Notes: generated by a model not told the origin, from the letters alone. Positions 32,047 to 57,579 are shown, numbered from the stretch's first letter. The stretch is 64,000 nt of DNA from Chitinophagales bacterium (GCA_035438465.1 DAORIK010000001.1:1719-65718), one strand, 5' to 3'. Numbers and translations are program-made.

Positions 32047-34683
32047 TTATTTCTTTAAATCCAAAGCGTTGTTTATTATGTATGCAAGATGCGCTCTGTG
32101 AGCTTGTGTTGATGCGTCGCTGCCGTATGGTGTTTCCATCCACGATAAAATACGCTGAACTTCACCAAATGCCGCTGATTTAGAAGTATAACTATAGGAT
32201 GATTTTGTATCTATTATATTTAATAATCTTCCGACATATTCTTCCTGCAAATTCTGACGAATAGTGGAAACAGATGCGCCCAAATCTTCCATAAAAATAC
32301 CATTGGTAACATCCTTGAGCATGGCATTCACACTATATTTATTGCCGTAATATTTACTGTCTGTTAAACGTTGCATTACTGTATTGTGTAATAATTGATC
32401 TAATACAGCACGCTGTATATTCAATACTCTATCGTGAATTTTGGGGTCTTCACTTTCTTTTCTGAAATCATAGCCTCTGCGTTGCATTTGCAGATAAGCA
32501 TAAATTTCATTCGGCACATTAAATGCACTTTTTGAAAAGGCATATTTGGATATGGCCTGCATAGCTCGTTTCTGTTCTGATAAAGGAACAACCGTAAAAG
32601 GCTTGCCTGAGGTATCCTGACCGACAAAATTTCTATTTACATAAACACCGCCAATATATCTGTCAATTACATTTAAACTGCGGGCATAATGGCCTGAAAG
32701 AATTAAATAAGCATTGCGCAGTTCGTGATATGATTTGTCCTGTGTGCTATATTTTGTTAGCAGTTTAGGTAATGCCTCATTTACCATCTTAATATTCCCT
32801 AAAGCATATCCAATTGCATCATTAGACATATCATAAATATTTGCACTCGGATCGATTCCTTTCCCAACAGAGCGCATATCATCTGCATCGTTTTTAAAAC
32901 GGTGCTCTTTTTTTACAGATTCAGACAGAATTTTTTGCAATGCAGCTTTTTCTTCTGCTTCATCTTCAATATTTATGTAACCATATTGAATAGCCCATTT
33001 ATCATAAGGACCCGGCTTAATATCAAAATACAAACCTTGTTTTGTTTTGTCTGTTGAGATATTGGGGATTGTATAATCCATTACAGAAGCTGTTAATCCT
33101 ACCGTTGCACCTAGAACAGGATCTTGCATTTGTTCTATGCTATGTAATTGTGAAGCAGTAAAATTATGCATCAACCCAAAAGTATGTCCTACTTCATGAA
33201 GTACCAAGTCATATAAAGCCTGTTTGATAAATTCATCTTTATCCATATCTGAAAATCCGTAAGCATTTAGCAGTTGTGTACCATACAAAATATTTTGATG
33301 CATGCCTTCACCGAATACACAATTTTCATAATTTAAATCAGTAGCAGGTTGCAAATTATCTAAAGCAGCAATTTCATATAATTTTTCCAATGGCAATCGG
33401 TTTGTCAGATACACAAATTCCAGCATAATGTCAGCACCAATGATTTCGCCGGTCCGCGGGTTTACAAAGCTTGGTCCATAGCCGCCATAAGGAGGTCTTG
33501 GAGAAGAAGTCCAGCGAATTACATTGTATCTGATGTCTTCCGCTTCCCAGCTTGCTGTATCCGGTTGTTCAAAACATTCAACAGCATTTTTAAATCCTGC
33601 AGATTCAAAGGCTTCATTCCAAGCGAGTACTGCATTGCGTATAATTGGCCTGAATTCTTTTGGAGTTGTTTTTTCAATCCACCATGTAATGGGCTTTACA
33701 GGCTCAGAGAGTTTGTCATTCGGATTTTTCTTTTCAAGATTCCATCTATGAATTAAATCCTTCCAAGGAACAGCATTGGTGGAAGTCTGATCTGTAATTT
33801 TTTCTATGAAATAACCAACCCGTGGGTCGTCATATCTTGGTTTGAATTTATTTTGAGGAACTTCAATTAAACTGTGCTGCATTTTTACAGAAATAAAACG
33901 TGCATCTGTTACTTCATCCGTGCCGGTATTTACAGGTAATGGATTTTCATAAATATATTCTACGGAAACATCTGTATTTTGAGGGTAATCTTTTACAGCA
34001 ATATATTTTGATTTTTTACTGCTGAGCGAGCCCATAGAAAATGCATCCGATTTATCCGAAGGTGATTTGGATGGTTTAATTTGTGTGATATTTTCACCGA
34101 GGAATAAATTATCAGCATCTATCAGATATGTTCTTTTCTTAGTTTTATCATCTGTACTTAGTGCAGCAATTTTTTCGGAAAGAAACAGAGGTTGATTAAT
34201 ATTAGCGTTTTCAGCTTTGCTTAATTCGTTATTTTTATCAAAATAATAACTGGTGTTTTGTAAAACAAAATCAATTCTGTCAAAATATCTTTGTATGGTA
34301 AATACAGAATTGTCTTTATAGCCGCCACGGGCATAACCTGCATCTAAAACACCATCAAGCACATATGCGAAGTAAATATATTCCTTGCCAATTTTATCTT
34401 CAGAAATTTCCAGGTAGGTTTTTCCGGTAGTTGTATCCTGATAAACATTGAAAAGCCCGCTGTATTTTCTGCATTTTTCAGTAACTTCTTTAATGGTTTT
34501 AAACTGTGGTTTATTGTCTTTTTTTGAGATAGTATCCTTTGGAGGTGTTTTTACTGAATCTGTCATGGTTTTAACAGCGACAGTATCATCTTCTTTTTTC
34601 TTTTTTTCTTTTTTAGCATACATATTTGCCGTCATAAAAAGGACAGCAGTTATAAGAATTAAACCTTGTTTGGGTGACTTCAT
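32047..34683 (-). CDS. secreted zinc-dependent metalloprotease (DUF5117/DUF4953-type)
   Basis: 878 aa with a signal peptide and zincin motif HEVGHTFGLMHNF. Confidence 0.8.
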   Translation of the reverse strand: MKSPKQGLILITAVLFMTANMYAKKEKKKKEDDTVAVKTMTDSVKTPPKDTISKKDNKPQFKTIKEVTEKCRKYSGLFNVYQDTTTGKTYLEISEDKIGKEYIYFAYVLDGVLDAGYARGGYKDNSVFTIQRYFDRIDFVLQNTSYYFDKNNELSKAENANINQPLFLSEKIAALSTDDKTKKRTYLIDADNLFLGENITQIKPSKSPSDKSDAFSMGSLSSKKSKYIAVKDYPQNTDVSVEYIYENPLPVNTGTDEVTDARFISVKMQHSLIEVPQNKFKPRYDDPRVGYFIEKITDQTSTNAVPWKDLIHRWNLEKKNPNDKLSEPVKPITWWIEKTTPKEFRPIIRNAVLAWNEAFESAGFKNAVECFEQPDTASWEAEDIRYNVIRWTSSPRPPYGGYGPSFVNPRTGEIIGADIMLEFVYLTNRLPLEKLYEIAALDNLQPATDLNYENCVFGEGMHQNILYGTQLLNAYGFSDMDKDEFIKQALYDLVLHEVGHTFGLMHNFTASQLHSIEQMQDPVLGATVGLTASVMDYTIPNISTDKTKQGLYFDIKPGPYDKWAIQYGYINIEDEAEEKAALQKILSESVKKEHRFKNDADDMRSVGKGIDPSANIYDMSNDAIGYALGNIKMVNEALPKLLTKYSTQDKSYHELRNAYLILSGHYARSLNVIDRYIGGVYVNRNFVGQDTSGKPFTVVPLSEQKRAMQAISKYAFSKSAFNVPNEIYAYLQMQRRGYDFRKESEDPKIHDRVLNIQRAVLDQLLHNTVMQRLTDSKYYGNKYSVNAMLKDVTNGIFMEDLGASVSTIRQNLQEEYVGRLLNIIDTKSSYSYTSKSAAFGEVQRILSWMETPYGSDASTQAHRAHLAYIINNALDLKK

Positions 34684-34741
34684 TTTTAGTTAATTTATTT
34701 GTGCAAAAATACCAATTTTAAATTGATTTTATATAAAGAAT

Positions 34742-34771
34742 AAAACCATCCTGAATTAGTAGGATGGTTTT
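34742..34771 (-). terminator. hairpin terminator at the end of the metal operon
   Basis: AAAACCATCCT (34742-34752) pairs with AGGATGGTTTT (34761-34771). On the minus strand it is followed by ATTCTTTAT. Confidence 0.6.
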
Positions 34772-34795
34772 ATAAAATATTACAGTAAACTGAGA

Positions 34796-35128
34796 TTATC
34801 TTTCATATTGACAGCACTTTGGCAGCTTGCCGTAGTCTTCTATTGTGGCTTTAAACTTTTGCGTGTCATAACCTGCTTTTGCAATGTTTTGTTCAACCTG
34901 ATCAATCGAAACTTTAGTTGGCACAAATGAAACAGTAAGGATATGTGTATCCTCATTCCATACAGCTGTCTTTAAACCTGCTGTCTTAGCTGCCTTTTCA
35001 ATTCTTTCTTTGCACATATCACAATTGCCTGAAACAATAAAAGAGGCTTTTGTTATTACTTCTTTTGCGAATGTCATTAAGCTAAAAAAGAAGAAAAGTA
35101 GGTTAAGGATTAGAATATTTTTCTTCAT
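34796..35128 (-). CDS. periplasmic heavy-metal-associated (HMA) domain protein
   Basis: Signal peptide, then a ferredoxin-like HMA fold with metal loop SGNCDMCKERIEKA. C-terminal PKCCQYER. Confidence 0.8.
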   Translation of the reverse strand: MKKNILILNLLFFFFSLMTFAKEVITKASFIVSGNCDMCKERIEKAAKTAGLKTAVWNEDTHILTVSFVPTKVSIDQVEQNIAKAGYDTQKFKATIEDYGKLPKCCQYER

Positions 35129-35223
35129 TTATTTAAAAATTATTTGCTTTTATCCATTTCCATGCCACATTAAGAACACTTTCAGGCTTTATCTGTAGCA
35201 TATCTTTTTTGCATTGGACAAAC

Positions 35224-35505
35224 TTAACTACCCGCTTCCTTTGTTTTTACAGAAACAGAATCTATAATTTTGTTAGATTTTTCTCCATCTTTTTTACAAC
35301 AAGCATCTTCTTTTTTGCTGCAAGATTTTCCTTCTTCTGCTTTACATTTGTCGCTGAATTTGTCGCAACAAGCTGAATCTTTGCAGCAACTTGCTTTTTC
35401 ACATGTCGAGCCGTCTTTACATTTTTTGTTATGACAGGCTGTAAATCCAATTAATGTAACTATCATCACCATAATAACAGTTACGATTGATTTTGTGTTG
35501 TTCAT
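35224..35505 (-). CDS. Cys-rich small lipoprotein (metallothionein-like)
   Basis: Lipobox GFTAC. I count 11 Cys in the ~70-residue mature part, including three CC pairs (ASCCKDSACCDK...DACCKKD). Confidence 0.6.
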   Translation of the reverse strand: MNNTKSIVTVIMVMIVTLIGFTACHNKKCKDGSTCEKASCCKDSACCDKFSDKCKAEEGKSCSKKEDACCKKDGEKSNKIIDSVSVKTKEAGS

Positions 35506-35526
35506 TTTATTTTGTTTTAATTGTTT

Positions 35527-37716
35527 TTAATTAATACTAATTCTAAAGCCACCATATACGCTTGCACCCATTACCGGTGCATATACCTGATAGGTATCAA
35601 AAAGTGTGCTAAAAGGTGTACCTAATATAACATTTTTTTGTCTGTAATTTGTTATATTTTCACAGCCGGCAAAAATTTCAGCATGTTTGAAATATTTTAA
35701 TATTTGCGCATTTAATAATACATAACGTGGTGTGTAACGTTTATCAGCTTCACCATCAAAACTATTCGGTAGTCTTCTTCTTCCATTTATGCTGGTGTTA
35801 ATATCAAACTGCCATTGCTGATTGGGTGTTTTATAGCTTAATACTACCAACCCTTTATTGAGCGCTTGTAATGGCTTTTGCAATAAAATTCCATGATAAG
35901 TGGAACGCACATCTTCAAGTCGATACGCCATTTTAAAGTCCAGTCCTTTTAATACTTCAAAGTTGAGCTCAATTAATAAACTGTTTGAAAATGATTTGCC
36001 ATGCAGATTTGAAATGGTTGCAGTGGCGTCCGCGTTGTCAATATCAATAATTGCTTGTTTTAGGAAATCAGTCCGGAAAAAATCAACAGCTAAACTTCCT
36101 TCGCGATTAAACAAATTAAATTTTTGGGTTAATGATAACCCGTAATTCCAGGCTAGTTCCTTAGTCGGATTTTCCTGAAAGATAATGCTTCTTGAGCTTG
36201 CCAGTAAGGACTGATTTTCCGTTAATAAATTAGGCACTCTAAAGCCGCTGCCGGCTGCAATGCGCAATGTGGTCTTATCTGTTAGTGAAAACTTAGCATG
36301 TACTCTCGGATTAAATTGAAAACCTGCGCGAGTATGATAATCACCGCGAATACCTGTGACGATAGTAATTTTTGAATTCCATTTGAACGTGTACTCGGCA
36401 AAAAGTCCGGGCACGAAATCATTTCGGTAGAATTGAAGTGAGTCTAATTTTTCATCTATTTTATCATACACAAAATTTATACCACCAACCAGAATATGAT
36501 TATCATTTTTAACTGTAGTCTGATATAAAATATTTCCGGTAAATGTTGCCTGTTTCGTATCAAAATTTTTCTTTCCATAATTAGATTTCTGCTGATGATA
36601 TACACCGGAAAATTGAGTACCTAAACTATTCTCTTCTGTAAAAATATACCCGGTTTTTGCAAAAGCTTCCACACGTTTGGTATTGATGTTGATGCCAAAT
36701 AATGGAATTGAATCTGAATGGTGATGTGTACTATGATTGATTTGACCGGCGATACGATTTTCACTCAATACTTTTATCATATACTGTCCTTCTGTTTTAT
36801 CTGAATGATAATTCCAGCGATTCAGAATATTGTATTGCTTCATCAACGGCTGATCCAGAAATCCATCGTGGTTCATATCTTGCTTTGCAGGTACAAAAGC
36901 CCCGTTTGCCATCAGCATTGTTCCGAGTTTTGGATTGATTTTATGATTAACCAGCAGGTTTGTTTCGATACGTACATTTTGATTGGCAAACATGTCGAAG
37001 AATAATTTAGCAGAGTCATTAAAACTACTTTTAAATTCCACATTCATAGAACCGGAAATACCTTCATAGCTGTTCTTTACAGAAGGAACACCTTTGGAAA
37101 CGGAGATAGACTTCATCCAGGGTGCAGGAATATTATCTAAACCAAAAGTAGAAGTCAGTCCACGTAAAATCGGAATTCCTTCCAATAGATTTTGCACATA
37201 GATTCCGCTAAGTCCTAAGAGCCTTATTTCTTTTGCACCCGTAACGGCATCACTGTAATTTACATCGGCAGAAGCATTTGCCTGGAAGCTTTCTGATAAA
37301 TTACAACAGGCCGCTTTTTTTAATTCTCCGGCTTCTATCTTTTCCGTCTTTATCGGATTAAGAGTTGAAATAAAATTGGTTTGACGCTTTCCGTTTATTT
37401 TTACTTCGCTTAGTTGAATCTCAGGCTCCAATTGAATTTTTATATCGGTAATCTTATTTATCAGAATTGTATCTGTCTGATAACCTACATAAGTTATTAT
37501 AATTGAATTGGGCAGTAGCTCAATTGTATCTAATTGGGCTACTCCAAATTCATCAGACGTAGCACCGATAATGGAATTTATCCATTGTACATTGGCACCA
37601 TATAAAAACTCTTTCGTCTTTTTATCGGTTACGGTTATTTTTATTTTTTGCTGGCTGAATACATATTGACTTATAAAAAACGTCAATAGTAAAAACCAGA
37701 AATCCAGTTTTTTCAT
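35527..37716 (-). CDS. TonB-dependent receptor with an N-terminal carboxypeptidase-regulatory-like domain
   Basis: 729 aa with a signal peptide and a CarbopepD_reg-like beta-sandwich. The plug region contains KKAACCNLSESFQANASADVNYSDAVTGAKEIRLLGL. C-terminal beta-barrel ends GGFRISIN. Confidence 0.85.
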   Translation of the reverse strand: MKKLDFWFLLLTFFISQYVFSQQKIKITVTDKKTKEFLYGANVQWINSIIGATSDEFGVAQLDTIELLPNSIIITYVGYQTDTILINKITDIKIQLEPEIQLSEVKINGKRQTNFISTLNPIKTEKIEAGELKKAACCNLSESFQANASADVNYSDAVTGAKEIRLLGLSGIYVQNLLEGIPILRGLTSTFGLDNIPAPWMKSISVSKGVPSVKNSYEGISGSMNVEFKSSFNDSAKLFFDMFANQNVRIETNLLVNHKINPKLGTMLMANGAFVPAKQDMNHDGFLDQPLMKQYNILNRWNYHSDKTEGQYMIKVLSENRIAGQINHSTHHHSDSIPLFGININTKRVEAFAKTGYIFTEENSLGTQFSGVYHQQKSNYGKKNFDTKQATFTGNILYQTTVKNDNHILVGGINFVYDKIDEKLDSLQFYRNDFVPGLFAEYTFKWNSKITIVTGIRGDYHTRAGFQFNPRVHAKFSLTDKTTLRIAAGSGFRVPNLLTENQSLLASSRSIIFQENPTKELAWNYGLSLTQKFNLFNREGSLAVDFFRTDFLKQAIIDIDNADATATISNLHGKSFSNSLLIELNFEVLKGLDFKMAYRLEDVRSTYHGILLQKPLQALNKGLVVLSYKTPNQQWQFDINTSINGRRRLPNSFDGEADKRYTPRYVLLNAQILKYFKHAEIFAGCENITNYRQKNVILGTPFSTLFDTYQVYAPVMGASVYGGFRISIN

Positions 37717-37768
37717 TTTTATATTTAACAGATGAGTAATATTGTTTATAAGACAATACGCTTATCCG

Positions 37769-38206
37769 TTAACAACGAAAGATTTGTAATTTTTGAGAAG
37801 AAGGTTGAAGTGCTGACTTTATATGATAAAGTTTGTTTGGCGGATGCAATCCTGAATAATAATTTTCAAAAATTTGATGATTGAACGGAGACAGATTATT
37901 GGTAAATAATTTAGAATTAAATTGTTTTTCTAATGGTTTTATTTGCAACTGCTTTGCTGTAAAACCCTCAACGGAAAGCTTGCTGAATATTTGAGTGTGA
38001 GTACAGCAATCATCTTTCTTCTTATAACCCATCTTTTCACAACAAGGAGAAAGAGGTGCTTCATTTTCACAGGTCGGGTCAGTAAATAAGCAAAAGCTAC
38101 GCGTATTCGAAGTATTACAAATATGTTCAAAGGCAGCTATGCCATTACTCGCTGTAAAAACAAGCATAGCTAATAATAATGCCGATGTATTAATTTTGTA
38201 TTTCAT
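37769..38206 (-). CDS. small exported His/Cys-rich protein (resembles the HYC_CC_PP-type family as I remember it)
   Basis: The ATG at 38206 gives MKYKINTSALLLAMLVFTASNGIAAFEHICNTS... with motifs HIC, PCCEKM, DDCCTH and HPP. The track start at 38257 is TTG. Confidence 0.5.
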   Translation of the reverse strand: MKYKINTSALLLAMLVFTASNGIAAFEHICNTSNTRSFCLFTDPTCENEAPLSPCCEKMGYKKKDDCCTHTQIFSKLSVEGFTAKQLQIKPLEKQFNSKLFTNNLSPFNHQIFENYYSGLHPPNKLYHIKSALQPSSQKLQIFRC

Positions 38207-38355
38207 TTTCTTAATTCCAAAATACACATTCAGAATAGTATTCAAATTTACTATCAATTATTGGTTACTGCTGCTGAAAAATGTTTATATATAGTTAAAA
38301 TTCTTTTCGGTAAAATGTTCAGAACTTATTTTACCTTTAATTAAGTTTGGTACAA

Positions 38356-39183
38356 ATGGGATTTTTAGACATCATACAAAATATTACAAAACCTAAAGAA
38401 CATAACCATGTTGATCAGTTCCTTACTAAATTTCCAAATAAAGTAGGCTCTTATGGTTATGATCCCTGGGGATTTAATATTAATGGTATTAAACCGTTTG
38501 TGGGCGCGGGTAAATTCTTCTATGAGAACTATTTTCGTGTAGAAACACATGGTTTGGAAAATATCCCGAAAAAAGGCAGGTGCTTAATTATCGCCAATCA
38601 CAGCGGGCAGCTGCCATTAGATGCCATGATGCTTGGGTATGCCATGGTGACAAACGAATATGCACCACGAGCACCCAAAGGTATGTACGAACGTTTTGTT
38701 CCGCAGGTGCCATTCATCAGTTCTATTTTCTCTCAATGGGGTGGCACCGTAGGCGATCCTGAAAACTGCATAAAAATGCTGGAGAATGATGAAGCCGTGA
38801 TGGTTTTTCCGGAAGGTGCCCGCGGCATATCAAAACCTTATAGAAAGAAGTATCAGTTACAACGTTTCGGATTAGGTTTTATGTATATGGCTATTCAAAC
38901 AAAGTCGCCGGTAATACCTGTAGGAATCGTTGGTTGTGAGGAATCTATCATTAATTTCGGCAACATAGATTTCTTGCAACGATTAATTAAGTTTCCCGCA
39001 GCACCTGCGTTAATTCCTTTTGTTTTTCCTTCAAAAGTGATTATCAATGTAGGCAAGCCAATGTTTTTTGAAGGTGATACCTCCAGAGAATATCAGGTAC
39101 AAGAAATGGTTGGAGAAGTGAAAAATGAGATAAATAAGCTGGTTGATATTGGCCTAAAACAAAGAAAAGGCATCTTTAGCTAA
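38356..39183 (+). CDS. lysophospholipid / 1-acyl-sn-glycerol-3-phosphate acyltransferase family protein
   Basis: HX4D-type block ANHSGQLPLD and FPEGARG motif. The track start at 38347 is TTG; the ATG is at 38356. Confidence 0.75.
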   Translation: MGFLDIIQNITKPKEHNHVDQFLTKFPNKVGSYGYDPWGFNINGIKPFVGAGKFFYENYFRVETHGLENIPKKGRCLIIANHSGQLPLDAMMLGYAMVTNEYAPRAPKGMYERFVPQVPFISSIFSQWGGTVGDPENCIKMLENDEAVMVFPEGARGISKPYRKKYQLQRFGLGFMYMAIQTKSPVIPVGIVGCEESIINFGNIDFLQRLIKFPAAPALIPFVFPSKVIINVGKPMFFEGDTSREYQVQEMVGEVKNEINKLVDIGLKQRKGIFS

Positions 39184-43487: not shown

Positions 43488-43574
43488 GGAGACGTGTCCG
43501 AGTGGTTGAAGGAGCACGCCTGGAAAGTGTGTATATGGGAAACTGTATCATGAGTTCGAATCTCATCGTCTCCG
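43488..43574 (+). tRNA. tRNA-Ser (anticodon GGA)
   Basis: GGAGACG...CGTCTCC acceptor stem. Anticodon loop CT-GGA-AA, long variable arm, T-arm GAGTTCGAATCTC and discriminator G. 87 nt with no encoded CCA. Confidence 0.9.
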
Positions 43575-57406: not shown

Positions 57407-57455
57407 GCGACAAAAGATTAATTCATCATTTATCATTTAAAATTTATAAATTTAC

Positions 57456-57540
57456 ATCACTCTAGGAGTGCCGATTTATTGGCTGAGAAATATCCTTTGA
57501 ACCTGATTTGGTTAACACCAACGTAGGGAACGAGTTCTCC
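57456..57540 (+). promoter_or_regulatory. TPP (THI-box) riboswitch
   Basis: Contains GGAGTGC...GGCTGAGAAATATCCTTTGAACCTGATTTGGTTAACACCAACGTAGGGAA. This matches the conserved CUGAGA and ACCUGAU...GGUUAAUACC...CGUAGGGAA cores of the THI element. It lies directly upstream of thiS. Confidence 0.9.
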
Positions 57541-57579
57541 ATTAATGTCATTTCGAGAGTAGCGAGAAATCTTGCTATA

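Follow-up and report, generated by a model that had tools for sequence, protein, structure and literature searches.

A conserved DUF8199, TonB-dependent transporter and HMA gene trio as a candidate soft-metal module of the Bacteroidota outer membrane

What does a TonB-dependent receptor do when it is encoded together with small, cysteine-rich exported proteins? The question is raised by a four-gene operon in a Chitinophagales bacterium (GCA_035438465.1, DAORIK010000001.1:1719-65718); the window is the whole stretch of 64,000 nt that was analysed. The genes, here g1 to g4, encode an HYC_CC_PP/DUF8199 protein (g1), a TonB-dependent transporter (TBDT) with a Cys-Cys pair in its plug (g2, the CC-plug transporter), a probable Cys-rich lipoprotein (g3) and an exported HMA protein (g4). 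An earlier note on this DNA had proposed an uncharacterised metal module, thiol-rich and extracytoplasmic, with links to soft metals, and the metal genes detected beside the module in relatives appear to give this proposal strong comparative support. With little more than even confidence, we read the operon as an outer-membrane module, specific to Bacteroidota, in which Cys thiolates relay a soft (thiophilic) metal, most likely Cu(I). We base this on the observed gene structure, protein families, invariance of the Cys motifs, tight co-occurrence of the genes, HMA-transporter fusions and metal-homeostasis neighbours.

The open reading frame (ORF) listing of the window confirmed four co-directional minus-strand genes in the order g1-g2-g3-g4, with gaps of 52, 21 and 95 nt. 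The motifs quoted in the earlier note were all found in the products: FEHIC, PTCENE, SPCCEKM, DDCCTH and HPP in g1 (8 Cys), the CC pair in the g2 plug, 11 Cys in g3, and CDMC plus a C-terminal CC in g4.

Conservation was analyzed in two sets of loci, which carry our L numbers where they have to be told apart. The close set comprises 16 genome loci found with g1, from Chitinophagales and Saprospirales metagenome-assembled genomes. All 16 keep g1-g2-(g3)-g4 together with a flanking acyltransferase and a DUF4953 metzincin; because these flanks are conserved too, the close loci alone prove little, and they would equally fit an order inherited in one lineage by functionally unrelated genes. The distant set comprises 80 metagenome loci with transporters of 36-45% identity, obtained by a transporter-alignment scan (at least 556 confirmed stretches) and scored with profiles built in this analysis. 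Here the neighbours outside the core differ from locus to locus and the flanks of the window are missing; outside the close set they recur, as the metzincin, in L029 only, which is not one of the 80. Despite these changing surroundings, the DUF8199-transporter(-HMA) core is retained, in some loci as a fusion. An explanation by synteny alone, to which we give almost no chance, is thus refuted by the 80 distant loci and the fusions.

In the distant set, a DUF8199 gene lies upstream of the transporter and on its strand in 57 of the 62 loci with enough upstream DNA. Both flanks are available in 55 loci, of which 37 carry DUF8199 and HMA as a trio with the transporter, 14 DUF8199 only, four HMA only and none neither; a divergent DUF8199-like ORF was seen in one of the "HMA-only" loci, and seven more loci, missed by the motif filter, are all trios. 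Starting from distant DUF8199 proteins (21-33% identity), a CarboxypepD_reg transporter was again found downstream of the gene, followed by HMA where the contig extends. In a plasmid collection we detected the trio in Parabacteroides distasonis (WP_005855442/444/446) and Bernardetia, DUF8199 with the transporter in Fulvitalea, and HMA with a CC-plug transporter near cusA in Haliscomenobacter. The core recurs in at least four named Bacteroidota orders (Chitinophagales, Saprospirales, Cytophagales and Bacteroidales). As judged from these gene orders, the conserved unit is a set of three genes: DUF8199, CC-plug transporter and HMA. The expectation that the four families would be co-conserved across Bacteroidota therefore held for three genes and failed for g3, which is found in the close Chitinophagales/Saprospirales clade only.

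In Porphyromonas gingivalis ATCC 33277, an array study lists the HMA gene PGN_0493 and, two locus tags away, the hypothetical gene PGN_0495 as co-induced 1.6-1.7-fold, together with hmuR and ferritin (PMC6417203); the HMA domain is misread there as the E. coli haem receptor Hma. PGN_0493 and PGN_0495 may belong to the same trio.

The g2 protein consists of a putative signal peptide, a CarboxypepD_reg-like N-terminal extension, a TonB-box candidate, a plug and a barrel. The Pfam scores bear out its description as a TonB receptor with a carboxypeptidase-regulatory-like N-domain: CarbopepD_reg_2, 34.4 bits (cut-off 32.2), plug PF07715, 25.6 bits (cut-off 23.9), and barrel PF00593, 71.2 bits (cut-off 27). 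In the AlphaFold2 (AF2) model, the barrel has about 22 strands with a predicted local distance difference test score (pLDDT) of 80-90, and plug and 22-strand barrel together identify g2 as a TBDT. Foldseek against the PDB matched FepA, BtuB, Cir and ZnuD with probability 1.0, as generic TBDTs with 10-15% identity, and the PDB sequence search gave weak FepA, PfeA and Cir matches only. Between the N-terminal extension and the plug lies the putative TonB box LSEVKI (family consensus LxEVxI), which we take to resemble Bacteroidota TonB boxes. Against the SusC/RagA model TIGR04056 g2 scored 25.8 bits (cut-off 368), and no SusD-like neighbour was found.

The protein has three Cys residues only, C137, C138 and C685, and the first two form the plug pair in KKAACCNLSESFQ. 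All 49 homologues compared, which range in identity from 83% to 41%, share the AACCNLSESF residues A135, A136, C137, C138, L140, E142 and F144 without exception, and the CC pair was present in every independent locus inspected. Only transporters of the close clade share the His-rich loop HSTHHHSD of g2, and for this reason it was rejected as a zinc site of the ZnuD type.

The HMA fold of g4, also named in the earlier note, was likewise upheld by Pfam (PF00403, 29.0 bits, cut-off 24.8), with the loop GNCDMC. Its cysteines are C36 and C39 of CDMC and C105 and C106 of the C-terminal pair. The nearest solved relatives are the N-terminal HMA domains of CopA (E = 5e-8, PDB search), and g4 stays under every CopZ/MerP equivalog cut-off (CopZ_Bs 26.9 vs 91, CopZ_Eh 21 vs 95, MerP 14.4 vs 92.55). 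The export signal of g4, the other signal peptides and the g3 lipobox were read from sequence.

A direct link between HMA and transporter comes from fusions. In 12 of the 80 loci, the CC-plug transporter carries at its N-terminus a fused g4-type HMA domain (motif G-x-C-x-x-C-K-x-R-I-E … L-P-x-C-C-x-Y), in the order signal peptide - HMA (CxxC … LPxCCxY) - CarboxypepD_reg - plug (CC) - barrel. The C-terminal P-x-C-C tail is also present in 23 of 52 stand-alone HMA partners. In structurally known transporters, extensions N-terminal to the TonB box are periplasmic. The HMA partner would accordingly work on the periplasmic side, beside the plug.

The third member of the conserved unit, g1, scored 28.2 bits against NCBIfam NF047658 (HYC_CC_PP; cut-off 28), a borderline match, and carries the motifs of that family (HIC, CC twice and HPP). 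Pfam PF26622 (DUF8199) was assigned by precomputed matches on g1 homologues. Both are catalogued families with function-less entries, and g1 is not an orphan. We found no study of HYC_CC_PP, DUF8199 or this type of CC-plug transporter in the literature, so that the module may still be called uncharacterised in the sense that no published function was found, while its first protein already stands in two databases. The link of DUF8199 to the CC-plug transporter and HMA is new here.

The layout of g1 is an N-terminal hydrophobic helix, H28-x-C30, C46, C55-C56, C67-C68, P122-P123 and the C-terminal C145. A search of 1.84 billion representatives detected 620 clusters (50% identity) matching the g1 profile at E<=1e-3; a profile search of a 5.8-billion-protein set with a diverse DUF8199 alignment gave few distant matches, the word index being limiting. 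In an alignment of 52 distant DUF8199 members (about 22% mean identity), complete conservation was found for H28, C30, C55, C67 and C68 and near-complete conservation for G22, C46 and P123. From these residues, the family signature reads as N-terminal hydrophobic helix, H-x-C, C, CC, CC, PP and a conserved C-terminus. We propose that the helix is a signal peptide or a membrane anchor.

Several observations concern DUF8199 surroundings and look-alikes. L008 carries a second DUF8199 paralogue (L008:13274-13705, 50% identity to g1) between the transporter and the HMA gene, at the position of g3 in other close loci. In L019:1923-2720, L020:6049-6846 and L021:280-1077, a 265-aa Ion_trans (voltage-gated-channel-like) gene is located upstream of DUF8199 on the opposite strand. 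DUF6660 proteins resemble DUF8199 in architecture (N-terminal helix, Cys-rich stretch, C-terminal PP); hhalign gave only 28% probability of homology, and the likeness is kept as architectural. In L026, a 14.8-kb plasmid of Ornithobacterium rhinotracheale, DUF6660 heads an operon with a TonB-dependent receptor (TBDR), a P-type ATPase and a multicopper oxidase, and in L009 it heads the efflux-gene block described below.

The g3 gene differs from the other three. Its product has no family match in NCBIfam or Pfam and is a probable lipoprotein, judged by its lipobox. An orthologue is present in 14 of the 16 close loci (72-165 aa, 7-28 Cys), and eight of these 14 are longer, ending in YxCPMH…CxxCGM, which is the Pfam HMBD domain (PF19335); the domain is intact in the L009 and L001 orthologues (47 bits). 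Read in the g3 frame, the window gives GS*VCPMQKRYATDKA*KCS*CGMEMDKSK* (asterisks, stops), of which the part from VCPMQKRYATDKA on follows the g3 stop. This copy is no longer an intact HMBD domain, having three in-frame stops and a His to Gln change. In the DNA alignment with L009 g3, a TAT codon at the domain boundary has become TAA, the CAT of CPMH reads CAA, and there are two further nonsense changes; the window g3 has also undergone a 126-nt in-frame deletion of Cys repeats, one Cys-to-Phe and one Cys-to-Ser change. The g3-g4 spacer, correct in its length of 95 nt in the earlier note, thus is not neutral DNA: by this alignment it is the pseudogenised remnant of the lost g3 HMBD domain. Because tblastn detected no g3 homologue in 94 loci outside the close clade, g3 is, on the comparative evidence, a lineage-specific and dispensable accessory that is degenerating in this genome, and not part of the core.

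Which substrate the core handles is suggested by its neighbours in relatives. P1B ATPases with CPC, N(x6)YN(x4)P and MxxSS abut the module in L028, L089, L095 and L101. These three motifs are the established signatures of Cu(I)/Ag(I) P1B-1 ATPases. The L028 ATPase scored 612 bits against TIGR01511, "copper-translocating P-type ATPase" (cut-off 397). In L047, the order is OEP, a CusB-like adaptor with HMBD and two g4-type HMA domains, CC-plug transporter and two HMA genes. In L009, the closest relative (transporter 94% identical to that of the window), the acyltransferase and g1 are separated by a 6-kb insertion (L009:3963-9894), directly upstream of g1, that consists of DUF6660 (L009:3963-4286), CusA/CzcA::OEP in one 1437-aa ORF and an adaptor; the CusA/CzcA part scored 1186 bits against TIGR00914. 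Identity to the window is only 56% for L009 g1 but 85-96% for the transporter, HMA and flanks, a comparison that suggests that the g1 end of the operon was replaced in L009. Genes of the resistance-nodulation-division (RND), adaptor and OEP types adjoin the module in L009 and L047 only.

Other neighbours include HMBD proteins in four loci, one of these proteins having three repeats, additional HMA proteins that end in Cys-rich tails in six loci, cation diffusion facilitator (CDF)-like membrane proteins in three to four loci and, in the Pfam census, three AraC-type regulators, two of which have an N-terminal CxxC and are inside the cluster (L076 and L089). TlpA-like periplasmic thioredoxins (WCGPC) are inside or adjoin the module in seven loci (L066, L083, L103, L104, L067, L077 and L094), and in the first four of them the thioredoxin gene sits between the HMA gene and an HMA-transporter fusion. 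Their presence hints that the module thiols are enzymatically kept reduced. The absence of an inner-membrane transporter, P-type ATPase or regulator, stressed in the earlier note, is therefore a local feature: it holds in the window, whereas the module of relatives has P1B ATPases of the Cu type, an AraC-type regulator and genes of the CDF-like and heavy-metal-efflux (HME-)RND kinds beside it. As such soft-metal accessory genes adjoin the module, a thiophilic metal is indicated, with Cu(I) favoured.

The same exporters allow a different role, detoxification or homeostasis under metal excess, in which HMA and DUF8199 would sequester periplasmic Cu(I)/Ag(I) from CopA- or Cus-type exporters and the transporter would be an outer-membrane sensor, a controlled re-entry route or, without precedent, an exit. 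It draws on the exporters and resistance-type genes beside the module (the P1B-1 ATPases, the HMA-fused CusB-like adaptor of L047 and CusA/CzcA::OEP of L009), on the CxxC AraC-type regulators within the cluster, and on the Ornithobacterium plasmid, where a TBDR of 25% identity, without the CC pair, is located between DUF6660 and the P-type ATPase and multicopper oxidase. However, no exporter is nearby in the window and in most of the 80 loci, where the surroundings are housekeeping, and the OEP of L047 is an exit duct of its own that would make an exporting TBDR redundant. To our knowledge, all characterised TBDTs import, and for this reason import was assumed for g2, by analogy. The copper TBDTs OprC, MbnT and CrtA are themselves importers (PMC12914433). 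A role under excess stays alive because exporters are often close by, and we consider it unlikely.

The metal could also be another thiophilic one, Zn(II), Cd(II) or Hg(II), taken up as zinc or passed along a Mer-like relay, an idea that we regard as improbable. In the Mer system, MerP has a CxxC motif, while Hg(II) is typically handed over by vicinal Cys pairs, found in MerT and at the C-terminus of MerA. The MerP/MerTP models match g4 and its relatives weakly, CDF-like and CzcA/CzcB-like neighbours occur, and the window transporter has the loop HSTHHHSD. Yet the MerP match is far under its cut-off, the His-rich loop is limited to the close clade, and the adjoining ATPases have signatures of the Cu(I) type and not of the Zn/Cd type. 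In the census of 113 neighbours, no Mer-type family ranked among the 25 commonest Pfam families, and the motif screens of the window ORFs flagged no other metal-handling gene, merA itself not having been searched for.

A further alternative is that the cysteines have a redox or structural role, with the transporter importing an organic thiol or disulfide compound or a metallophore and HMA and DUF8199 acting as redox accessories. The TlpA-like thioredoxins in seven loci would fit this, as would the finding that no model puts the CC pair into a defined binding site, and the precedent of CrtA, a copper TBDT able to take chelates, not free ions (PMC12914433). We find this alternative very improbable: HMA and HMBD are dedicated metal-binding folds (Pfam), no metallophore biosynthesis genes recur beside the module, and it offers no easy account of the metal ATPases and RND genes nearby.

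For the favoured soft-metal module we infer metal binding, metal identity and the order of hand-off as follows. The g2 protein would be a TonB-energised 22-strand transporter with its plug Cys-Cys pair as a thiolate station. The periplasmic HMA metallochaperone g4, at the N-terminal side of the transporter, would take the ion from the plug or give it to the plug, and g1, as obligatory third partner, would be the next periplasmic relay, a docking or an insulating station. The stations would then be the plug Cys pair, HMA (CxxC and CC) and DUF8199 (HxC, CC, CC), with g3-like proteins as optional buffers; g3 itself would serve as such a buffer, a metallothionein-like lipoprotein that the module can do without and that is already half gone from this genome. 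A more specific version, which we put forward tentatively, is that a bare soft-metal ion is moved by thiolate exchange, the plug Cys pair handing it directly to tethered or free HMA and to DUF8199, possibly coupled to CopA or Cus and in a homeostatic or even outward direction.

Several points weigh against a copper-handling module of this kind. We found no experiment on any module member in the literature, which leaves metal binding a proposal. Cu-specific neighbours were detected in about 5-10% of loci only, and some neighbours (CDF-like proteins, CzcA/CzcB-like efflux parts) fit Zn, Cd or Co as well as Cu. No HMA gene is nearby in the 14 both-flank loci with DUF8199 only, so the HMA chaperone is not strictly required in cis. 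The structural models give little help: the g2 plug has a pLDDT of 25-60 (AF2), with the CC pair not placeable relative to the periplasm, and the AF2 model of g1 is unusable for a fold search (pLDDT 55, predicted template modelling score, pTM, 0.23; 33-sequence alignment). The module is present in anaerobic Bacteroidales such as Parabacteroides. Anaerobic Bacteroidales have little known copper demand, which weakens a purely nutritional copper-import role. The adjacency to exporters could mean detoxification rather than uptake.

Comparison with known systems places the module near, but outside, each of them. OprC binds copper through a CxxxM-HxM site. Like OprC/NosA of Pseudomonas, g2 is an outer-membrane TBDT that would move an unchelated soft metal with a Cys thiolate among the ligands; unlike them, it has no CxxxM-HxM, no Met being present at +4 from C137, C138 or C685, and its sequence similarity to OprC is no better than the generic TBDR level. 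OprC is not known to have a CarboxypepD_reg extension or to be partnered by DUF8199 or HMA proteins. ZnuD of Neisseria is, similarly, a small TBDT for a bare metal ion and is among the structural matches of g2, but ZnuD has His/Asp-rich loops, whereas the His-rich loop of g2 is not family-conserved and the identity is 10-12%.

TonB-dependent copper import over the outer membrane is also known for MbnT (methanobactin-Cu) and CrtA (chelated Cu(II)), besides OprC (bare copper) (PMC12914433). CrtA (BfrG), found for the most part in beta- and gamma-Proteobacteria, takes carboxylate-chelated Cu(II) via an invariant His; the words "cysteine" and "HMA" are not in the text of that paper, which accordingly describes neither a Cys pair nor an HMA partner for CrtA (PMC12914433). 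The g2 transporter belongs to a different phylum from OprC, MbnT and CrtA and shows no specific sequence similarity to them, and its partners are not known from any of the three.

The hand-offs in MerP-MerT-MerA, CopZ/CopA and CusF/CusCBA are alike in that a CxxC-bearing HMA chaperone passes a soft-metal ion on to its transporter through ligand exchange, with vicinal Cys pairs as transfer sites. Those systems act at the inner membrane or in tripartite efflux, whereas here the transporter is a TonB-dependent outer-membrane barrel, and g4 is set apart from CopZ and MerP by their equivalog cut-offs. The fused HMA of 12 of the 80 g2 relatives is comparable to the extra periplasmic domain before the TonB box in FecA/FpvA-type TBDTs; unlike in FecA/FpvA, the extension is HMA or CarboxypepD_reg and not a sigma-regulator signalling domain, and no FecR/FecI pair is consistently linked to the module.

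The features of the operon and its flanks are listed in Table 1.

Table 1. Coordinates of the operon, its signals and its flanking genes in the window
Feature	Position	Strand	Description
Conserved upstream box TTTTAACTATATATAAACA	38282..38300	-	direct repeat TTAAC-N6-TAAAC; candidate regulator-binding site
TAAATTTG	38243..38250	-	fits TAnnTTTG, the -7 promoter consensus of Bacteroidota; lies 37 nt ahead of the g1 ATG
g1	37769..38206	-	145-aa HYC_CC_PP / DUF8199 protein
g2	35527..37716	-	729-aa TonB-dependent transporter
g3	35224..35505	-	93-aa probable lipoprotein (…LIGFTAC), 11 Cys in CC/CxxxC repeats
HMBD remnant of g3 C-terminus	35129..35223	-	in-frame, three stops, CPMH to CPMQ
g4	34796..35128	-	110-aa exported HMA protein, GNCDMC and C-terminal LPKCCQYER
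Intrinsic-terminator-like hairpin, operon end	34740..34773	-	13-bp stem and T-rich tail
DUF5118/DUF5117/DUF4953 met-zincin	32047-34683	-	878 aa; downstream of operon, past terminator
Acyltransferase	38347-39183		upstream of operon

The terminal hairpin described earlier was recovered with its stem and T-rich tail (folding energy -17.2 kcal/mol, z = -4.2 vs shuffles). The upstream boundary needed revision: 38257 is indeed the end of an ORF, the TTG-extended g1 form of 162 aa, but the ATG at 38206 is the likely g1 start, because the homologues are 144-146 aa long and begin with MK(Y/F)K. TAnnTTTG is the established -7 promoter consensus of Bacteroidota, and an equivalent is located upstream of g1 in most related loci. 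The repeat TTAAC-N6-T(T/A)AAC sits 50-100 nt upstream of DUF8199 genes in the window, L001-L014, L037, L038, L048, L051, L053, L092 and L099. With the relaxed pattern T[TA]A{2,3}C-N4-8-T[TA]A{2,3}C, it was detected upstream of DUF8199 in 10 of the 15 close loci and, among the distant ones, in 9 of 58, as against 0.74% of the 160-nt control windows. This direct repeat may be a common operator.

The Rfam search of the operon region found no RNA family. Elsewhere in the window, a thiamine pyrophosphate (TPP) riboswitch (57454-57547, +) and a tRNA gene (43488-43574, +) were detected, both ordinary; the genes behind the riboswitch are presumably those of thiamine biosynthesis. The module is surrounded by housekeeping genes. 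A regex screen of 60 window ORFs, which did not cover RND, adaptor and OEP genes, detected no P-type ATPase, HMBD or thioredoxin beyond the four genes. In the ORF list of the window, no RND, adaptor or OEP gene is adjacent to the module, an arrangement that does not correspond to a Cus/Czc tripartite system.

The met-zincin and the acyltransferase were rejected as module parts: they are syntenic within the lineage only and are missing from the 80 distant loci. The met-zincin association is probably lineage synteny, as it is not found in these metagenome loci. A met-zincin was also seen downstream of the 42%-identical CC-plug transporter in L029 (L029:8241-10853).

Taken together, the module is probably a widespread form of TonB-dependent metal transport, as far as gene content can tell: DUF8199 comprises 620 clusters, and at least 556 metagenome stretches are related to the transporter. 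We know of no copper entry transporter characterised in the outer membrane of Bacteroidota. Copper entry over the outer membrane has been assigned to few transporters, OprC, MbnT and CrtA (PMC12914433). Two invariant plug cysteines, a sometimes-fused chaperone and an obligatory small partner are features open to test, and one carrier, Parabacteroides distasonis, is a cultured and tractable gut commensal. If the soft-metal proposal is true, it would provide a function for two DUF-type families, account for the presence of TonB-dependent receptors in the metal islands of Bacteroidota and extend TonB-dependent transport by a mechanism based on thiols, and direct transfer from the plug to HMA would amount to a "cysteine bucket brigade" over the outer membrane.

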